Shown in pieces: positions 43,817 to 52,010 of a DNA stretch of 64,000 nucleotides. The position numbers and the translations under genes were made by a program. The notes below the pieces were generated by a model, which was not told where the DNA came from, made no database searches, and saw only the letters and a list, made by a program, of their open reading frames with translations. Each line of letters opens with the position of its first letter. Within the stretch, counting starts at the first letter, position 1. Location: NCBI GenBank assembly GCA_044225825.1, contig JBGAIB010000002.1:193660-257659 (forward strand), read 5' to 3'. The DNA comes from Chitinophagales bacterium. Lineage in GTDB: Bacteria > Bacteroidota > Bacteroidia > Chitinophagales > LD1.

Positions 43817-44884
43817 CTATGCGCCTTTGTTTACCCGTGCAATCCATTTAGGTAAAACTACCGCTCCCACCACCAGATACAAGTAATAACTATAAAGACG
43901 CCACACCAGCGTTAGTGCGGCCGAAAGGCCCATACCGCCAGGTATAAATTCGCAGTTAAACACCTGGAAGAACCACTCTGCCAAACCACTGGCACCCGGA
44001 GTAGATGGTATAATGATAAATACCCAAATAACATACTGGCGTGCCAGCACCAATAGCTGATCGGCAGGCACTGTTGCCACGGCATATATAAGTGCGTTGG
44101 CCAGTAAATAGCGCGCCATCCAACTTACAACGGTGGCGCTAAATACCCGCAGGTAAAAAGCAATGGAAAGACTTTTAAACTCTTGTGATGTAATTTCAAT
44201 TTCATCGCCCAGGTGTTGCAATTTAGCTGCAAAGCGATTAAAGAAGGCACGATGTGAAAGAGCATGAAAAAAAGCGCGGGCCTTATGCGGAATTATAAAA
44301 AGTGCAAGGGCCAAAAACGCCGAAGCACCAAATAAAACGGCATAACCTATCCATGCTTTATTGGCAATATAGCTAATGCTTTGAAGCATTTCGTGGCCCT
44401 GCAGATCGGCACAATTTGCCGGTACGGCAAACATGTTTTGACCAACCGTAGCATATAACACCGTATATACTACAACATAAGCCAGGTTATCCAAAAAGGT
44501 AGTGAGCATTATAGTGGCCGTGCTGCGGCCATAGCTGATGCCTTCCTTTTTGAGAATAAAAAGCGCCAATGCAATACCACCCACGGCGCCCGGCGTAATA
44601 GCGGAGCCAAACTCCCATAACATAATTACCTGGAAGGCTGTAAACCAACTGAGCTTGCGGCCCGTTAATTCGCGGATGCGGAAAATGTAAGCGCCATCGC
44701 GGATGAATACCGTAAGTGCGGCCAGTACCAAACCCATTATAAACTGCCTGTTAATGGATAAGGTAAGCAGCTTAGCAGGTTGCAGGCTGCTTACAATAAG
44801 GTAGAGCGAAAGCCCGATACCAACCACCAGGGGCACTACTATATTGCGCCACTTAATCCCCGGTATTTGTTCGTTGCTTTGCAT
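43817..44884 (-). CDS. Lysylphosphatidylglycerol synthase TM-domain (flippase-like) protein
   Basis: WEFGSAITPGAVGG, PSTPGASGLAE, WRLYSYY. Confidence 0.88.
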   Translation of the reverse strand: MQSNEQIPGIKWRNIVVPLVVGIGLSLYLIVSSLQPAKLLTLSINRQFIMGLVLAALTVFIRDGAYIFRIRELTGRKLSWFTAFQVIMLWEFGSAITPGAVGGIALALFILKKEGISYGRSTATIMLTTFLDNLAYVVVYTVLYATVGQNMFAVPANCADLQGHEMLQSISYIANKAWIGYAVLFGASAFLALALFIIPHKARAFFHALSHRAFFNRFAAKLQHLGDEIEITSQEFKSLSIAFYLRVFSATVVSWMARYLLANALIYAVATVPADQLLVLARQYVIWVFIIIPSTPGASGLAEWFFQVFNCEFIPGGMGLSAALTLVWRLYSYYLYLVVGAVVLPKWIARVNKGA

Positions 44885-44954
44885 AATGCCTGCAGGCCGA
44901 CAAAGAAGAGAAATACTTTTGGAAAAAGACTTAGTTTATGTTGAACTTTGCTGT

Positions 44955-45347
44955 ATGAGGAAAACACTACTGCTCTGCTTTGTACTTATTGCTGCTTTGT
45001 CGGGATGTAAAAAAGAAGAGACAACGGTAGCGCCTATCAGCCGATGCTATACAGGCACCCGCACCTACTACACAATCCAAAATTTTGGAAACGGACAAAA
45101 GGACAGTACCATTACTTATGATGTATCGCCCTGCCTGCTGCAATATGGACATGACAGCGTGCTTTACGACGGACACGTTTTTGCCCGTGATTACGATAGC
45201 CTGCAAAACGAACATTACACCCGGATGGATCATTATCCGATAGGCACCCAGTGGATGGTGTTATATGGCACCGATAGTTTACACTACGAATTATGGAGTG
45301 TGGGCTCGATTGTAACAGCCGAAAAATTCAGCGGTAGAAAGCTTTAG
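44955..45347 (+). CDS. Hypothetical lipoprotein
   Basis: Lipobox LSGC-KKEE. Confidence 0.65.
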   Translation: MRKTLLLCFVLIAALSGCKKEETTVAPISRCYTGTRTYYTIQNFGNGQKDSTITYDVSPCLLQYGHDSVLYDGHVFARDYDSLQNEHYTRMDHYPIGTQWMVLYGTDSLHYELWSVGSIVTAEKFSGRKL

Positions 45348-46132
45348 TTTTCCTGACCGTCCAGTACTATTTCATCGGCTTCCGCATCCGGATCGGCTTT
45401 CTCGAGCCAGAAGTTGTTATAACCCTCTCCGAATACGATCTTAATTTTCTTTTCCTGTACCAGCTCTAACACCGAAAGGAAAACGAATATGGCGTGCAGG
45501 CGGTTTTCTACCCCTTCGAACACCTCTTCGAAACCGGTTTGTTTTCCAATAGCCAGTTTTTCCATCAGCAACATCCGTTCGCCGCCGATGGTATAAGGAG
45601 GTGTTTCTACTGTATGAACTACTTTGTTCTTCTGCCTGTCAAACCGATCGAGCACATTTTGGAATGCTTTTAAAAGGCGGAACATGGTGAGGTTCTGCAT
45701 TTCGAACTCGCGCTCGAACATGGCTGCAATCTCCTGGTTCTCGTGCAGGGCATTACCGCGTTTAGCAATATTCTGACGGTCCTCCTCCATTTTACGGAGG
45801 GCATCTGTCGCTTCTTTGTATTTCTTGTATTCTATCAGGCGGTTAACAAGTTCTTCACGCGGGTCAATAACAGCACCTGTTTCAGGATCCACTTCGCGGC
45901 GGGGCAGCAACATTTTAGCCTTTATGCGCATCAGCGTTGCGGCCACCAATATAAATTCGCTGGCCACTTCCACGTTCAAACGTTCCATCTGATGGATGTA
46001 GGTTAAGAAGTCGTTGGTAATTTTGCTGATAGGAATATCGTAAATGTCCAGCTCGTCGCGTTCGATGAAGAACAGCAACAGGTCGAAGGGGCCTTCGAAC
46101 TGGGGGAGTTTTATTTCGTAAGTATCCTGCAT
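45344..46132 (-). CDS. scpA: Segregation and condensation protein A
   Basis: FEGPFDLLLFFI, IDPREELVNRLIEYKKYK, FLSVLEL. Confidence 0.93.
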   Translation of the reverse strand: MQDTYEIKLPQFEGPFDLLLFFIERDELDIYDIPISKITNDFLTYIHQMERLNVEVASEFILVAATLMRIKAKMLLPRREVDPETGAVIDPREELVNRLIEYKKYKEATDALRKMEEDRQNIAKRGNALHENQEIAAMFEREFEMQNLTMFRLLKAFQNVLDRFDRQKNKVVHTVETPPYTIGGERMLLMEKLAIGKQTGFEEVFEGVENRLHAIFVFLSVLELVQEKKIKIVFGEGYNNFWLEKADPDAEADEIVLDGQEN

Positions 46133-46235
46133 AATAATGAGCACATGCCGGCTACCTTGCCGGGCTGCGAAGATAAGCTTTGCAGGGGCGTTTCAAAGCG
46201 CAATTTGCGCCAATAAAAAGGGCTATTTTAGGGCT

Positions 46236-46897
46236 ATGAATCCGCTGCATAAAAAGCTACGCCTGAAGGAAAACCAAAGCCTGTAGTAATCAACAAACCC
46301 GTTGATTTTGAGGAAGCTATAATGCCTTTGCCCAAAGGTGTTACCGTAAGCACTGCTGTAAAAACCAGGGCAGATCACCTGTTTTGGTTTGTTAAAAACG
46401 TAGCGGAATTAAAGGCCGGGCAAAGCAGGGTTTTGAAGTTGCTGAAAGAGGGTATGTTACTCTGGATTCTACATCCCAAGGGCAGCAGTGGTCTGCAAAC
46501 GGACTTAACCCGCGATAAAGGCTGGGAGAGTTTACAATCGGTAGACAGCCTTGCCTGGGTAAGTTATATTGCCTTTAACGATACCTGGACGGCAGTGGCT
46601 GTTCGCCTGAAAACGGAAGCAGATAAAAAGCGCCTGGAGAAACCACAAGAAGATCGACTGATCTATCAATATGCGGATAGTAAAACGAAAACCATTCGAC
46701 TACCGGAAGACCTGGATAAAGTTTTGAAGAAGGATAAACAAGTTAAAGCCATTTGGGACAAGTTAGCCTTCAGCCACCGACGCGAGTATGTGGAATGGAT
46801 AATAACTGCCAAACGCGAGGAGACCCGGCAAGCCCGATTACAGGGCACGGTAGAACGTTTGTTGAAAGGCTATAAGAACCCTTCTAACAGACCCTAA
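46236..46897 (+). pseudogene. YdeI/OmpD-associated family gene with a frameshift near 46283
   Basis: ATG 46236 gives MNPLHKKLRLKENQSL then TAG at 46284; the -1 frame continues VVINKPVDFEEAIMPLPKG..TDLTRDKGW..SHRREYVEWI..AKREETR. Confidence 0.7.
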
Positions 46898-46955
46898 AAG
46901 CAAAGGCCCAACCTAAGTTGAGCCTTCTTGAAATCAATCTTTCGATTGCGTTTCT
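46898..46955 (-). ncRNA. Putative small RNA, copy 1
   Basis: AGAAACGCAATC-GAAA-GATTG followed by a terminator-like hairpin; near-identical to 49461..49519 including upstream boxes. Confidence 0.5.
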
Positions 46956-47014
46956 ATTACTAATACGCTGTTGCCTGAACTTTGGTATTTGGTGTTTTGT
47001 TAAAAATACAGGCG

Positions 47015-49384
47015 TTAATGCTGCAAGCAAAATTTTGCCAGGAGGGTGCCAGTCAGGCTATCCGTAAGCAGGTAGGTGCCATTCGGCAAATTTGTTACCG
47101 TGTACGCCTCGGTCCTGCCGGATTGATTCCACTCCGCAACAATCTGGCCACACATGTCTACCACGCGCAGTTGGCGGTTAAGGGAGTTTGTAAAACTTAC
47201 CTGCAAAAATTGATTTGCCGGCACAGGGTACACCACACAGGCTGTGCTCGTGGTGATTGAAGCCAAATCAAGACCAAGAACTGTAAAACCAGCCGACAGG
47301 GTGTTGCACCCATTGGAATCTGTAATTTGTACCTGATAGTTGCCATCCTGTGTAAGTAGATGACTTTGCGTTGTTTCGCCATTTAACTGATTGCCCTGCA
47401 AATACCATTGGTAGCTATACCCTGCTGCCGTTAACAGTGTGTCGTTTTGACGCGTAATTACCGGCATGGCAGGTAGCGGGTTAACAGCTACCTGTATGCT
47501 GTCAACCGTAGAACAGTTGTTAAATCCGGTAGCTGTTATGAGGTAGGTTACCGTATTAGTGGGCAGCACAGTAATAGCTGAGGTTGTTTCGCCGGTGTTC
47601 CATTGGTACTGTGCGCCACCGTTTGCAGTTAGGGTTATGCTATCTCCCATACAGATGGATATGGACGCTGGAATAAGTGTAAGGACGGGAGCGGCTTCAC
47701 TAATAACTTCCAGTATCACCACACTGTCGCAGCCGGCCACACTTTGCAGCGAATCGTAATACATGCCGGGGTTAGTAATGGTCTGCCCTTTAAATACCAG
47801 GCTTTGTCCGGGACACAAGTGAGCCGTTTGCGGCGTGGTTATAGTATTAGCAACCTGCAGATAAAGCGGCGCTGAAATAACCGTGCAGGCATCATTCGCC
47901 ACGCAACGGTAAGCACGCCCATTAATTGAATTATTTACGGAATTTAGCTGAAGAGTGCTGCCAGTAGCGCCGGTAATGTCCTGCCAGCCCAAAGCCGTAC
48001 TATCCTGCCATTGGAGATTAACGGTTGTACTGGTTACGCTAAACAGCACATCCGTACCCGGACAAACAGACTGGTTAGTAGAAGTGTTTGCGACAGTGGT
48101 CGAGCAACCCATTACTAAACCGGTGTTATAGCGGGCAATAGCAATATCACCTACTGTGCCGTTCCTATCCTCACCTGCCACCAGTAAACGGCCATCGGAT
48201 TGCAAGACCAAACTATAGGCAAAGGGGTTATACGTAAATGTTGTAAACGTACGTCCAGTGCCGTTCCATGTACTATCAGCTGTGGTGTTTTCCTTTATAC
48301 GTGTTACATAAAAATAATAGGTCAGATTTTGCCGGGCTATACCACAGAGTAACAGGTTGCCATCAGGTTGACGGACCATATCGTAGAAGGTAGCAGCCTG
48401 ATAGCCTGCTATAGGCAACAGGGCTTTCCCACTTGTCCCAAACGTGCTATCCGGCACGCCATCAAACGAGTAGCGCGCCATAGCTGGTTGCCCATCGCCA
48501 TAATTGGGGTAATGGGTACCTGCAACAACCAATCTGTTGGCCGAGTCAATAACAAGCACCGCAGGGCTATCATCGTCGTAAGGGCCCCAATCGGTAATAC
48601 GGATGCCATTTACACCAAACGAACTATCGATCACTCCATTCGCGGTAAAACGCATCAGCAAAAAGTCTACTGATTCATTATTGGTTTGCGAACCACCTAG
48701 CACCAGTAATCGGCCATCGGGCAATACGTTTACCTGATTGGCGGTGGTATGCGGTTGAGGTTTGGTCCATATAAAGGTGCCTCCCTGTCCGAAGGTACTA
48801 TCCAGTGAGCCGTTACTATTCAATCGGGCCAGGGCTACCTGGTACTGCGCATAACGCCGGTAGCCGCATACTATAATTTGACCGTTCGGCAAAAAATCGA
48901 GATTGTTGGCAGCATCTCCCTGCGAACCAAAATCAAGGGTAGTAAAACCATTCGTGCCAAAGGCACTGTCAATAGCGCCATCGGGCCAGTACCGGCCAAT
49001 CAGCCACTTACCATCACTCCCCGTAATTGTGCTGCCTACCACCACCAGTTTATGATCCGGCTGTTCCTTTAAACGGGCAATGTATTCATTACCACCCAGA
49101 TCGGTAACAGCAAAACCGTTTATGCCGAAGGCACTATCCAACTGTCCGCCGGAGAGATAGCGGCAGATAAACAGATTTTGATTTGTACCGGTTTTTGTGC
49201 CTCCGGCAACTATCATCTTTCCGTTAGTCAATGCCAACACGTCTGCTGCTGCTTCGCTTGACGCGTTGATATCAGTAGTTACTTTGCCATCCGTATCAAA
49301 GGTTAAATCGAGTGTACCGGGTTGTTGCGCATGCAGCGATAGAGCAATAGCTATCGCTACGAAAGAGAGTAGAGTCCTTTTCAT
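47015..49384 (-). CDS. T9SS type A cargo protein with delta-60 repeats
   Basis: Signal peptide; repeated LDxxFGxxG and DGKxxxxG units; Ig-like segments; C-terminal VYPVPA..LPNGTYLL..KF sorting domain. Confidence 0.88.
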   Translation of the reverse strand: MKRTLLSFVAIAIALSLHAQQPGTLDLTFDTDGKVTTDINASSEAAADVLALTNGKMIVAGGTKTGTNQNLFICRYLSGGQLDSAFGINGFAVTDLGGNEYIARLKEQPDHKLVVVGSTITGSDGKWLIGRYWPDGAIDSAFGTNGFTTLDFGSQGDAANNLDFLPNGQIIVCGYRRYAQYQVALARLNSNGSLDSTFGQGGTFIWTKPQPHTTANQVNVLPDGRLLVLGGSQTNNESVDFLLMRFTANGVIDSSFGVNGIRITDWGPYDDDSPAVLVIDSANRLVVAGTHYPNYGDGQPAMARYSFDGVPDSTFGTSGKALLPIAGYQAATFYDMVRQPDGNLLLCGIARQNLTYYFYVTRIKENTTADSTWNGTGRTFTTFTYNPFAYSLVLQSDGRLLVAGEDRNGTVGDIAIARYNTGLVMGCSTTVANTSTNQSVCPGTDVLFSVTSTTVNLQWQDSTALGWQDITGATGSTLQLNSVNNSINGRAYRCVANDACTVISAPLYLQVANTITTPQTAHLCPGQSLVFKGQTITNPGMYYDSLQSVAGCDSVVILEVISEAAPVLTLIPASISICMGDSITLTANGGAQYQWNTGETTSAITVLPTNTVTYLITATGFNNCSTVDSIQVAVNPLPAMPVITRQNDTLLTAAGYSYQWYLQGNQLNGETTQSHLLTQDGNYQVQITDSNGCNTLSAGFTVLGLDLASITTSTACVVYPVPANQFLQVSFTNSLNRQLRVVDMCGQIVAEWNQSGRTEAYTVTNLPNGTYLLTDSLTGTLLAKFCLQH

Positions 49385-49460
49385 CCAAATCGCTGTTTTA
49401 CAGCTTTAAACTACAACAATTTACATCTGCAACAAAAAAAGAATACGGCAGGGCATAATA

Positions 49461-49519
49461 AGCAAAAGGCCCAACCGAAGTTGAGCCTTTCTGAAATTCA
49501 ATCTTTCGATTGCGTTTCT
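49461..49519 (-). ncRNA. Putative small RNA, copy 2
   Basis: AGAAACGCAATCGAAAGATTGAATTTCAGAAAGGCTCAACTTCGGTTGGGCCTTTTGCT: GAAA and UUCG tetraloop hairpins. Confidence 0.5.
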
Positions 49520-49630
49520 GTAATTAATACGCTCCATCTGCCGTGTAGGTATGTATTGCTTTGTTAAATTTTCGGTAAGGGTGGCTGTAAGCGCTTCGGG
49601 CACCATCAGCTGCCAAGAGGTTAAAAGCAC

Positions 49631-50632
49631 TTAGAAAAGGTTGCGGGTAAAAAACAATACTGCCAATGTAAGCAGGTAAACAACTGCAATAGCAAAGGTG
49701 TCGGCCGCCAGCTTCCAACGTTTCTTTTCCTGCTGATAAACAAAGCCAATGATGGCGATACCTGTCATCAGCAAAGCAGCGGCTAATACAATGAGATTGC
49801 TCTTTGAAGCACTTTTAAGCAAGGGACCCCGGGTATAAAAAATATCATCAATAGCCAGTATCAAAAAGTTGAACAGGTTACTGCCAAAAATATTCCCAAC
49901 CGCAATATCAACGGCACCAATGCGTACCGCAGCTATGCTTACTACCAGTTCGGGCAGTGATGTTGAAAGGGCCAGCAACAGCGTGCCTACAAAGGTTTGT
50001 CCAAGGCCGGTTGAAGAAGCAATTTTATCTCCTGCCTGCGGTAAAAACAGGGCAGCGATAACCACTAGTAAAGCATTCAACACATAATACAGCATTGCCT
50101 TTTTCAAAGGCACCTCGTTGGCATGCACCGGCGGTTGGCCGGCAGCTACCGGCTTTTTCTGTTCGAACGTATAAATAGTGCGAATAGCAAGGAGATACAC
50201 CAGTATAATTACAAAAGAGGAGACCCCCACCCAACCAACCGAGGGCAGGTAAGGCGCAGCAACTAATGCTGCAGCTACCGTTGTAATCATAATTACACCA
50301 AAACCTGCGCCGATGATCTGACTCTGCTGTACCCGCGATGAAATGGGAGTGCCGCTGATCAGGAAGTCAAGTATTGATAAAATTAGGATGTTGAACATGC
50401 AGCTGCCGGCAATATCCGCAATGGCAAGGTCGGGCGCATGTACGATTGCCACGGAACTGATGCCTGAAATAAGTTCAGGTAAACTGGTGACCGAGGCCAT
50501 CATAATTAATCCAAACCAGGCGCGGCCCATGCCCGATTTTTCGGCGATGATGTCGCCATAGCGGCTAAGCCGTATGCCGGAGAAAATGATCCCCAGCGCG
50601 CAGATTAAAAAGGTGATGCTGGCGGCTAACAT
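49631..50632 (-). CDS. Sodium:calcium antiporter (CaCA/YrbG family)
   Basis: Two TSLPEL alpha-repeats, GNIFGSNLFN. Confidence 0.9.
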   Translation of the reverse strand: MLAASITFLICALGIIFSGIRLSRYGDIIAEKSGMGRAWFGLIMMASVTSLPELISGISSVAIVHAPDLAIADIAGSCMFNILILSILDFLISGTPISSRVQQSQIIGAGFGVIMITTVAAALVAAPYLPSVGWVGVSSFVIILVYLLAIRTIYTFEQKKPVAAGQPPVHANEVPLKKAMLYYVLNALLVVIAALFLPQAGDKIASSTGLGQTFVGTLLLALSTSLPELVVSIAAVRIGAVDIAVGNIFGSNLFNFLILAIDDIFYTRGPLLKSASKSNLIVLAAALLMTGIAIIGFVYQQEKKRWKLAADTFAIAVVYLLTLAVLFFTRNLF

Positions 50633-50668
50633 GCAGGCAAGATATAAAGAGGAAAAGAAATTACGGGC

Positions 50669-51931
50669 CTATTCCTCTTCTTTCAACTTAAGGTTCACCA
50701 GTTCGATACGTGTATCGGTAGCCCGCAAAATGCGGATGGTGAAATTATCCAGCTCAATAATTTTACCGGCTTCAGGTATATCCTCAAAACCGCTGATCAC
50801 ATAACCGGAGAGTGTGGTATAATCACCTTCAGGGATATTGAGTTTGTATTCGCGGTTCAGGTAGTCAATGTCCAACCTGCCGCTTAGTACAAATTCCACT
50901 TCCGACACTTGCTTCTCGGCCAACTCCTCATCATCATGTTCATCGCGTATTTCGCCGAAGATTTGCTCCATTAAATCTTCGAGTGTAATCAGGCCGGCAG
51001 TGCCTCCGTATTCATCTACCACACGCGCCATATTCTTGCGCTCGCGGATAAACTGTAAGAGCAGATCACGGGCAGTCATGGAAGTAGGAATAACTGGCAG
51101 CGGACGCACCACGCTTTGCAAACTGGCTGGATTTTTCAGCATATCGAAGTGGTGCACATAACCGATGATATTGTCTATTTCCTCTTCGTACACTACCAGT
51201 CGCGAAAGTTTAGATTCGATAAATCGCCGGCGTAGTTCTTCCATGCTCTCGGTAACTTCTACACCCTGTATCTCAGGACGGGGAATCATACAGTTGCGCA
51301 CCTTTACATCTTTCAGATAAAGTGCTTTTTCGAAAATATCGGTGTTCAGCGGGTCAGTCTCTCCATCGGTATCCTTATCGCTTACCGATGTTTCCTTTAC
51401 AAGGTATTCCAGATCTTCTTTGGTGAACTGCAATTTGTTTTCGTTCAACTCTGTACCTGCTACGCTACGGATAATCCAGCGCGAAAGGCGATAGAATATA
51501 TTAGTAAGCGGAGATAGGAGAATGTAAAACAGCTTGATGGGATAGGAGAACAACAACAACGACTGATCGGAATTTACCCGGAACAAAATTTTAGGCAACA
51601 GCTCCCCGAAAATCAAAATCACAAAGGTGGTAAATACGGTTTGTACCAGTAGCAGACGAATTTCGCCCTGCGGCAAAAACGAAAACCGATCGTGTGTAAA
51701 GTAGTTGGCTGTAACGGAGCCAAAGAGCACCAGGGCAATGTTAAGCCCAATAAGCATGGTGCTTATAAACTTGGAAGGGTTGGTATTGAAGTCGGCAATA
51801 ATACGGGCGCGCAGCGAGCCTTTTTCCTTTAATAACTCCACACGCAGTTTATTGGCCGATACAAAGGCGATTTCGATACCGGAGAAAAATGCGATGAGGG
51901 CCAGCGAAAGAAGGATGAGGACAATTTCCAT
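50669..51931 (-). CDS. Hemolysin-family CNNM/CBS/CorC protein
   Basis: FFSGIEIAF, FGELLPK, MIPR, VDEYGGTAGLITLED..GEIRDEHD. Confidence 0.92.
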   Translation of the reverse strand: MEIVLILLSLALIAFFSGIEIAFVSANKLRVELLKEKGSLRARIIADFNTNPSKFISTMLIGLNIALVLFGSVTANYFTHDRFSFLPQGEIRLLLVQTVFTTFVILIFGELLPKILFRVNSDQSLLLFSYPIKLFYILLSPLTNIFYRLSRWIIRSVAGTELNENKLQFTKEDLEYLVKETSVSDKDTDGETDPLNTDIFEKALYLKDVKVRNCMIPRPEIQGVEVTESMEELRRRFIESKLSRLVVYEEEIDNIIGYVHHFDMLKNPASLQSVVRPLPVIPTSMTARDLLLQFIRERKNMARVVDEYGGTAGLITLEDLMEQIFGEIRDEHDDEELAEKQVSEVEFVLSGRLDIDYLNREYKLNIPEGDYTTLSGYVISGFEDIPEAGKIIELDNFTIRILRATDTRIELVNLKLKEEE

Positions 51932-51978
51932 TGAGAGGCGAAAAATACGAAATACCGGCCAATTGCACCGGCGGGTTT

Positions 51979-52010
51979 AAAAAAGGACCGGCAGCATAAG
52001 CTACCGGTCC
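51979..52010 (-). terminator. Rho-independent terminator after the OmpA/MotB gene
   Basis: GGACCGGTAGC-tta-TGCTGCCGGTCC-TTTTTT on the minus strand. Confidence 0.7.

Follow-up and report, generated by a model that had tools for sequence, protein, structure and literature searches.

A candidate family of sibling small RNA genes with conserved promoter-like boxes in one Chitinophagales genus

The stretch of Chitinophagales contig JBGAIB010000002.1 examined here (64,000 nucleotides (nt) in full, hereafter the window) carries two minus-strand copies of the same short element, one on either side of a gene for a type IX secretion system (T9SS) cargo protein. The question raised by this locus is what has kept the boxes and hairpins of the two copies alike. 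The original prediction described them as twin small RNA (sRNA) genes with promoters of the extracytoplasmic function (ECF) type. Comparative evidence now indicates an undescribed family of sibling sRNAs, the transcripts of which are predicted, restricted to a single lineage. We favor, with moderate confidence, the reading that its members are co-regulated, stand-alone genes for transcribed small RNAs that act in trans.

The layout shared by the two copies on the minus strand is TTTAACAAA-N7-ATACC-N15-GCGTATTA-N5-AGAAACGCAATCGAAAGATTGA, followed by a U-rich linker, a GC-rich hairpin, and a T-rich tail; the repeated unit extends from 47004 to 46898 in copy A and from 49568 to 49461 in copy B. 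Reading of the sequence and pairwise alignment bear out that the same boxes stand at the same spacing in each, the N7, N15, and N5 spacers being divergent in sequence and identical in length. The 22-mer AGAAACGCAATCGAAAGATTGA, with which the RNA would start, occurs exactly twice in the window, where none is expected by chance; two matches were seen in 0 of 100 shuffles. Inside the RNA the copies differ in length by 1 nt, which argues against a conserved reading frame, and the element was judged to be non-coding.

A BLAST search of copy B against the whole 4.8-Mb assembly returned only the two window copies, and covariance models raised the count to four; the "twins" are thus both real, but their number had been underestimated. 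Among 40 relatives BLAST revealed look-alikes in four genomes. A pattern scan of genome contigs gave 11 stretches, six from Chitinophagales-type records; the other five lack a terminator and were taken as chance. The first covariance model (R1), built from 10 sequences and searched against 40 genomes of the genus, located a second pair in the same genome (G000) at C5:209716-209779 (76 bits) and C5:210535-210592 (34 bits), approximately 0.8 kb apart, together with four members in G013, two in G012, one each in G010 and G055, and one diverged member in G043. Matches below about 42 bits in this search were, as inspected, ordinary terminators behind coding regions. The second model (R2), which included the promoter region, revealed a tandem partner for one G012 copy, brought the G013 array to three, and raised the G043 count to two, and a metagenome pattern scan yielded six stretches, one of them a true member. 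The family now stands at 17 distinct sequences from six genomes of one Chitinophagales genus (five in G013, four in G000, three in G012, two in G043, and one each in G010 and G055) plus one on a metagenome contig, its hosts being a few related soil and water bacteria. The proposed sibling family is therefore borne out by relatives recovered both with BLAST and with covariance models.

Beyond the genus the signal fades. Five other genera of the same family (27 genomes) gave a single match of 40.6 bits (G082, on score alone) and no convincing member, and at the level of the order (151 genomes, 82 genera) the only matches outside G000 scored 37-41 bits, in four genomes, and are plain terminators lacking the 5′ hairpin. 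A permissive scan of positions 44000-52000 against Rfam release 15 (both strands, E≤10) produced no match over either copy, in keeping with the claim that no known Rfam family is involved. A high-copy repeat or mobile element is likewise rejected, as had been foreseen, by the presence of just four copies in 4.8 Mb and by the absence of a family match among the viral contigs searched. Searches of one paper library listed no sRNA study in Chitinophagales. The one Rfam match in the scanned region, to the L2-Alphaproteobacteria ribosomal-protein leader at 46557-46625 (+), lies within the YdeI/OmdA open reading frame; at 21.7 bits against a gathering score of 37.8 it is sub-threshold and was taken as chance.

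Folding of the window copies reveals a 5′ hairpin, a terminator hairpin of 11-12 pairs, and a U-rich tail in a predicted transcript of approximately 58-62 nt. The folding energies of -22.2 kcal/mol (copy A; z -4.25) and -25.4 kcal/mol (copy B; z -5.44) beat all 200 shuffles, and a single structure dominates, the minimum-free-energy structure having a frequency of 0.46 and 0.74 in the respective ensembles. In an alignment of all 17 members, which was fitted to the model and so favors the structure, 96.1% of cells are standard pairs, and both partners have changed in 15 of 20 pairs: all 11 modeled terminator pairs, and two in each of the two 5′ helices, which are 86.6% and 98.8% paired across the set. 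None of 500 shuffles did as well, and slid partners were 26-58% paired; an earlier set of 13 members gave 97.7% pairing with 9 of 20 pairs compensatory. An initial MAFFT alignment yielded the same consensus structure under RNAalifold. Most members have GAAA, GCAA, or GUAA as the hairpin loop, and the covariation includes G-U pairs. Folds and covariation thus agree with the GNRA hairpin and terminator that had been proposed. They do not agree with the proposed single-stranded 5′ end, AGAAACG: its GAAA pairs with UUUC in the minimum-free-energy fold, the helix so formed has compensatory changes, and nothing at the 5′ end is left unpaired but its first base and a small internal loop. The sequence of the 5′ hairpin is conserved beyond the needs of pairing, yet it covaries in diverged members.

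The distribution of sequence identity points the same way. Over ten members (45 pairs), mean pairwise identity is 0.70 in the -35 box, 0.82 in the -10 box, and 0.89 in RNA nt 1-22, against 0.32 in the spacer and 0.26-0.27 in the flanks, neither of which is more alike than random sequence; positional orthologues in G000 and G013 exhibit the same pattern. In sequence comparison the pattern is a clear footprint of selection on an RNA and on two boxes a fixed distance apart, and with the covariation it upholds the view that selection, and not neutral duplication, has shaped the copies.

Such a footprint raises the question of whether DNA alone might be the functional molecule. The unit could be a gene-end module, regulator binding sites plus a terminator that insulates surface-protein genes, with a short RNA of no function. 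The position of copy A 10 nt past the cargo stop codon, of copy C after a DEAD-box helicase gene, and of the G010 copy after a flavodoxin gene would suit it, since the module would terminate these genes, as would the partial reverse complementarity of the -35 and -10 boxes, which is kept in AAAC...GTTT variants. The best-conserved part, however, is the transcribed 5′ hairpin, which a terminator or operator module does not need and which makes a purely DNA-level role less likely; the hairpin covariation, with its G-U pairs, is of the RNA type; and the 176-aa lipoprotein gene that faces copy C already has a separate terminator of its own. We regard this explanation as quite improbable. The box complementarity on which it draws is itself a weak signal from related copies. 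ATAC (about -33) and GTAT (about -11) are mutually inverted, AAAC or AAAT boxes go with CGTT and ATAC with CGTA, and 72.1% of cells pair from box to box as against 66.6% in shuffles, with three cells changing on both sides. Pairing of the boxes as part of a longer RNA was rejected on the same grounds; in the three diverged copies the complementarity may mark two promoter specificities or a dimeric binding site, or may simply come from shared ancestry.

If the boxes constitute a promoter, its consensus is an A-rich -35 element (mostly CATACY), N16, CGTATTA, N5, and a +1 A. CGT lies at -12 to -10 from the predicted +1 A in all of the first 12 members (one with a 1-nt offset at a model boundary) and is kept in 16 of the 17 distinct members. 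Nine members have CATACY or AATACC as the -35 box; the remaining boxes are CACAAT, TGCAAT, CGAAAT, GACAAC, TAAACT, and CAAACT, and an A[AC][CT] core sits exactly 16 nt from CGT. The principal sigma factor of the phylum does not appear to read such a sequence. The Bacteroidota sigma-A consensus is described as TTTG at -33 and TAnnTTTG at -7 (PMC7366714), and positions -12 to -1 here are CGTATTA plus five variable nucleotides, with no TTTG; a simple scan for sites of the Escherichia coli sigma-70 type also found none at the predicted promoters. ECF promoters possess an AAC-like -35 core, a spacer of about 16-17 nt, and a CGT -10 core. Measured against that general consensus, an ECF-like assignment of the A[AC][CT]-N16-CGT layout is only plausible. 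In a genome-wide position weight matrix (PWM) scan the top scores, 20-22 bits, belong to three of the four sRNA promoters. Two other intergenic sites reach about 20 bits, at C1:74839 (+) and C5:828302 (-), and precede Pfam-less genes (78 aa and 352 aa); as entries to a regulon they gave no lead.

The genome contains 12 ECF-sized sigma genes. A core one (C5:297581-298162) is 76-97% identical in 37 of the 40 genomes of the genus, with two Pfam-less genes behind it. Among the 12 loci drawn on, all seven orthologues with a readable upstream side bear GTAAAAT-N16-CGTC, which probably represents the autoregulated promoter of the gene. As the cognate sigma factor of the sRNAs this candidate was rejected: its own promoter is related but different, and its presence in 37 of 40 genomes does not track that of the sRNAs.

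The farthest upstream box, TTTAACAAA, had been put forward as a feature of the family; it occurs in 5 of the 13 members listed and is better described as a feature of a subgroup. It does bring to mind another mechanism, in which the conserved region is not a promoter read by a sigma factor but a target for RNA-guided transcription of the dCas12f-sigmaE type. That system occurs in Bacteroidetes, where it places the start of transcription 45-48 bp past the target-adjacent motif (PMC13472631), and TTTAACAAA lies at -49 to -41 in five copies. Against this, the box is missing from most members, the would-be 14-16-nt target stretch (the N7 spacer) is not conserved, and the best-conserved element is at -12 to -6, where dCas12f-sigmaE shows no conservation in the promoters described by PMC13472631. 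With no match to a Cas12f-like TNB domain (PF07282) in a 98.8%-complete genome, and no contiguous conserved target, the RNA-guided explanation was rejected and its probability considered negligible.

The genes around the copies bear upon a further alternative. Coordinates are collected in Table 1.

Table 1. Features of the two window copies, the gene between them, and the second pair in the same genome
Feature	Position	Strand	Basis or remark
sRNA copy B, predicted transcript, +1 A at 49519 to end of terminator tail	49456..49519	-	Covariance model 80.4 bits (R1), 96.9 bits with promoter
Copy B 5′ hairpin: GAAA/UUUC outer stem enclosing CAAUC-GAAA-GAUUG, GNRA loop	49493..49518	-	Minimum-free-energy fold
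Copy B predicted intrinsic terminator: 12 pairs, UUCG loop, then U-rich tail	49464..49491	-	Also flagged independently by terminator scan
Copy B putative -10 box CGTATTA (-12 to -6)	49525..49531	-	Read from sequence; CGT conserved in the family
Copy B putative -35 box CATACC	49548..49553	-	Read from sequence
Copy B upstream A/T box TTTAACAAA (-49 to -41)	49560..49568	-	Read from sequence; not family-wide
sRNA copy A, predicted transcript, +1 A at 46955	46893..46955	-	Covariance model 79.9 bits (R1), 96.8 bits (R2)
Copy A predicted terminator hairpin: 11 pairs, UUAG loop	46902..46927	-	5 nt past stop of convergent YdeI/OmdA gene
Copy A putative -10 box CGTATTA	46961..46967	-	Read from sequence
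Copy A putative -35 box ATACC (AATACC)	46984..46988	-	Read from sequence
Copy A upstream box TTTAACAAA	46996..47004	-	Begins 10 nt past cargo-gene stop codon
T9SS cargo gene between the copies, 789 aa; DUF5122 propeller, Ig_7, Por_Secre_tail	47015-49384	-	Pfam scan
Second pair in the same genome, copies C and D	C5:209716-210631	-	Outside the window

Copy B lies 75 nt ahead of the start of the cargo gene, with a Na/Ca-exchanger gene upstream, and copy A lies behind the cargo gene, facing the convergent YdeI/OmdA gene; the terminator of copy A was missed by a simple terminator scan owing to an interrupted T run. In the second pair, copy C differs in its terminator and carries compensatory changes that make its hairpin CAACC/GGUUG, and copy D diverges from the lipoprotein gene and precedes a small GldL_N-domain gene by 33 nt. 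G013 retains both loci and has an extra unit of one sRNA plus a convergent lipoprotein gene, which appears to have been duplicated as a block: at G013:C12:254342-256100 three sRNA genes alternate with two convergent lipoprotein genes between the helicase and GldL_N genes. At G012:C5:149838-150068 a tandem pair precedes the gene of a T9SS cargo protein that has an esterase-like domain; the second member of the pair is strongly diverged, with a CAAAC-GUAA-GUUUG hairpin and CGTATATA kept at the -10 position. The third G012 copy faces the 3′ end of a DUF7619/Por_Secre_tail gene, and one G043 copy faces an outer-membrane barrel gene. Flavodoxin and glyoxalase genes flank the RNA in G010, in G055, and on the metagenome contig.

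At loci with a co-directional gene close behind, such as copies B and D and the similarly placed G013 counterpart of the latter, the G010 copy (about 50 nt before the glyoxalase gene), and the G012 tandem pair, the element might instead be a cis-acting 5′ leader or attenuator. The promoter would then serve the downstream gene, the hairpin, as a sensor or a protein-binding site, would set the choice between termination and read-through, and the RNA of about 60 nt would be a by-product; at copy D there is indeed no room for a separate downstream promoter. Such a role cannot explain copy A, copy C, the copy G012_98k, the G043 copy, or two G013 copies, which face convergent 3′ ends and have nothing to lead. 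The downstream genes that do exist come from unrelated families, the G012 units follow one another at 22 nt, and hairpin and terminator do not overlap, with no antiterminator apparent among the alternative folds, which were not exhaustively searched. A leader is therefore an unlikely account of the family, though copy D and its G013 orthologue may have such a role. Over the loci as a whole the gene 3′ of the RNA varies and is often convergent (at least six members face convergent genes), which suggests that the unit is not tied to any one downstream gene.

Surface- and secreted-protein genes are frequent neighbors of family members, and the window copies had been presented as flanking a T9SS cargo gene. 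The identity of that gene stands, its DUF5122, Ig_7, and Por_Secre_tail domains having been recognized by Pfam scan, and we treat it as a neighbor and not as an established part of the system. A specific link is not supported. Neighbors differ among loci, and a Por_Secre_tail gene adjoins three of about seven independent loci in a lineage where at least 150 Por_Secre_tail matches occur in G000 by itself (328 candidates, 150 of them scored), which makes the association marginal. This secreted-protein repertoire is unusually large for a 4.8-Mb genome.

Returning to the preferred reading, the two window copies and the two on C5 would be paralogous stand-alone sRNA genes within one genome, each self-contained and made up of a conserved non-sigma-A promoter, a nearly invariant 5′ hairpin, and a strong intrinsic terminator. 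The promoter is probably read by an alternative sigma factor with an ECF-like architecture, unless a dedicated activator is needed. From the predicted +1 the siblings would be transcribed together, and we infer for them a role in trans, in which they would regulate genes post-transcriptionally under shared control. Their function would reside in the conserved 5′ hairpin, which might open as a seed to pair with mRNAs or might be bound by a protein; with regard to the latter, the genome encodes two RRM_1 proteins, and no Hfq was found in it. The same promoter may also feed a close co-directional gene by read-through, as the gap between copy D and the GldL_N gene (and its G013 orthologue) suggests.

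Several observations weigh against this reading. The start site and the transcript are themselves predictions. The RNA is almost fully base-paired and offers no obvious single-stranded seed, and the target prediction that had been called for gave no lead. In a duplex scan of the first 33 nt against 3648 start regions, a crude one in that it had no accessibility term and used crudely called start regions, the result was no better than with five shuffled seeds (minimum -22.6 kcal/mol, against -22.4 to -27.6 kcal/mol for the shuffled seeds); nor was consistent complementarity found to neighboring genes or their start regions. At copy D and its G013 counterpart the next start codon comes only some 30-33 nt after the terminator, a spacing that is leader-like. 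The metagenome orthologue of the G010 copy has CACATTA in place of CGTATTA. Finally, the motif was found upstream of none of the 12 ECF genes, either by eye or by PWM, the best score there being 12.3 bits, a value exceeded at 497 genome positions, while the sRNA promoters reach 20-22 bits; neither a sigma factor nor an activator was found. ECF genes are usually autoregulated (PMC7826278), but some ECF groups are not, and a missing upstream motif does not exclude an ECF factor. The predicted ECF-like promoter has thus fared unevenly: the layout fits where sigma-A does not, while the ECF genes themselves and the CACATTA member fail to support it.

Were an ECF-type sigma factor at work, an envelope-stress response would come to mind. 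A dedicated sigma factor or activator would switch on the siblings, and the GNRA hairpin would tune surface-protein or secretion load by titrating an RNA-binding protein or by making a loop-loop contact, no linear seed being required. The RNAs sit amid genes whose products are T9SS cargos, lipoproteins, a GldL-like membrane protein, and an outer-membrane barrel. We think this more specific scenario rather unlikely; if true, it would supply a Bacteroidota counterpart of the envelope-stress sRNAs of Proteobacteria. In enterobacteria MicA, RybB, and MicL are sRNAs dependent on the envelope-stress factor sigma-E. The present family resembles these, and FoxJ of Fusobacterium, in being short and terminator-ended with a promoter, here a putative one, of the ECF type, and in that some of the sRNAs are found at gene 3′ ends with an internal promoter of their own. 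It differs in that no cognate sigma factor, sequence relation, Hfq, or outer-membrane-protein target was found.

Among described systems, the FopS/GibS group of Bacteroides thetaiotaomicron comes closest. Its members are likewise multicopy paralogous Bacteroidota sRNAs, described as approximately 65-70 nt long with Rho-independent terminators (PMC11697453, PMC7366714), and their copies occupy scattered sites, some of them next to other genes or antisense to them. According to the same accounts, FopS combines a single-stranded seed at the 5′ end with canonical sigma-A promoters, whereas the Chitinophagales RNAs have a closed 5′ hairpin and a non-canonical promoter; FopS is present in 12-15 copies across Bacteroidaceae, as compared with one to five copies in part of one genus; and FopS targets susC start regions, whereas the duplex scans here gave no target lead. 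The gibS-like loci read for comparison possess a sigma-A-like TATATTTA box. Homology with FopS/GibS was not found: there is no shared R1 seed and no sequence or Rfam similarity, the latter with the presence of FopS in release 15 unconfirmed, although its paper states that the family was deposited in Rfam. Bacteroides is described as having RRM-1 proteins and no Hfq, and the RRM protein RbpB as binding FopS sRNAs (PMC11697453). A possible relative of the promoter itself is PM2 of B. thetaiotaomicron, a non-sigma-A, near-palindromic -10/-30 motif assigned to 13% of intergenic sRNA candidates (PMC7366714); like it, the Chitinophagales boxes lie near -10 and -30, and they are mutually inverted, a likeness that is one of description only.

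Very little is known of sRNA regulation in Bacteroidota beyond the gut Bacteroides, and the family represents a clean comparative candidate whose promoter motif, structure, and copy coordinates can be tested directly. If transcribed, it would offer a handle on a non-canonical promoter class in Chitinophagales and a test case of how a nearly fully paired RNA of about 60 nt regulates in a phylum without Hfq, the general impact being limited by the narrow distribution. The promoter class may extend somewhat further than the RNA. An element at G009:C20:157924-158037 (-) has the same layout, CTACACACT-N16-CGTAATTG-N5-AAGAA, and a strong terminator, but where the GNRA hairpin would stand its RNA body is a different one; the element could be distantly related, or could be a separate sRNA drawing on this class of promoter.

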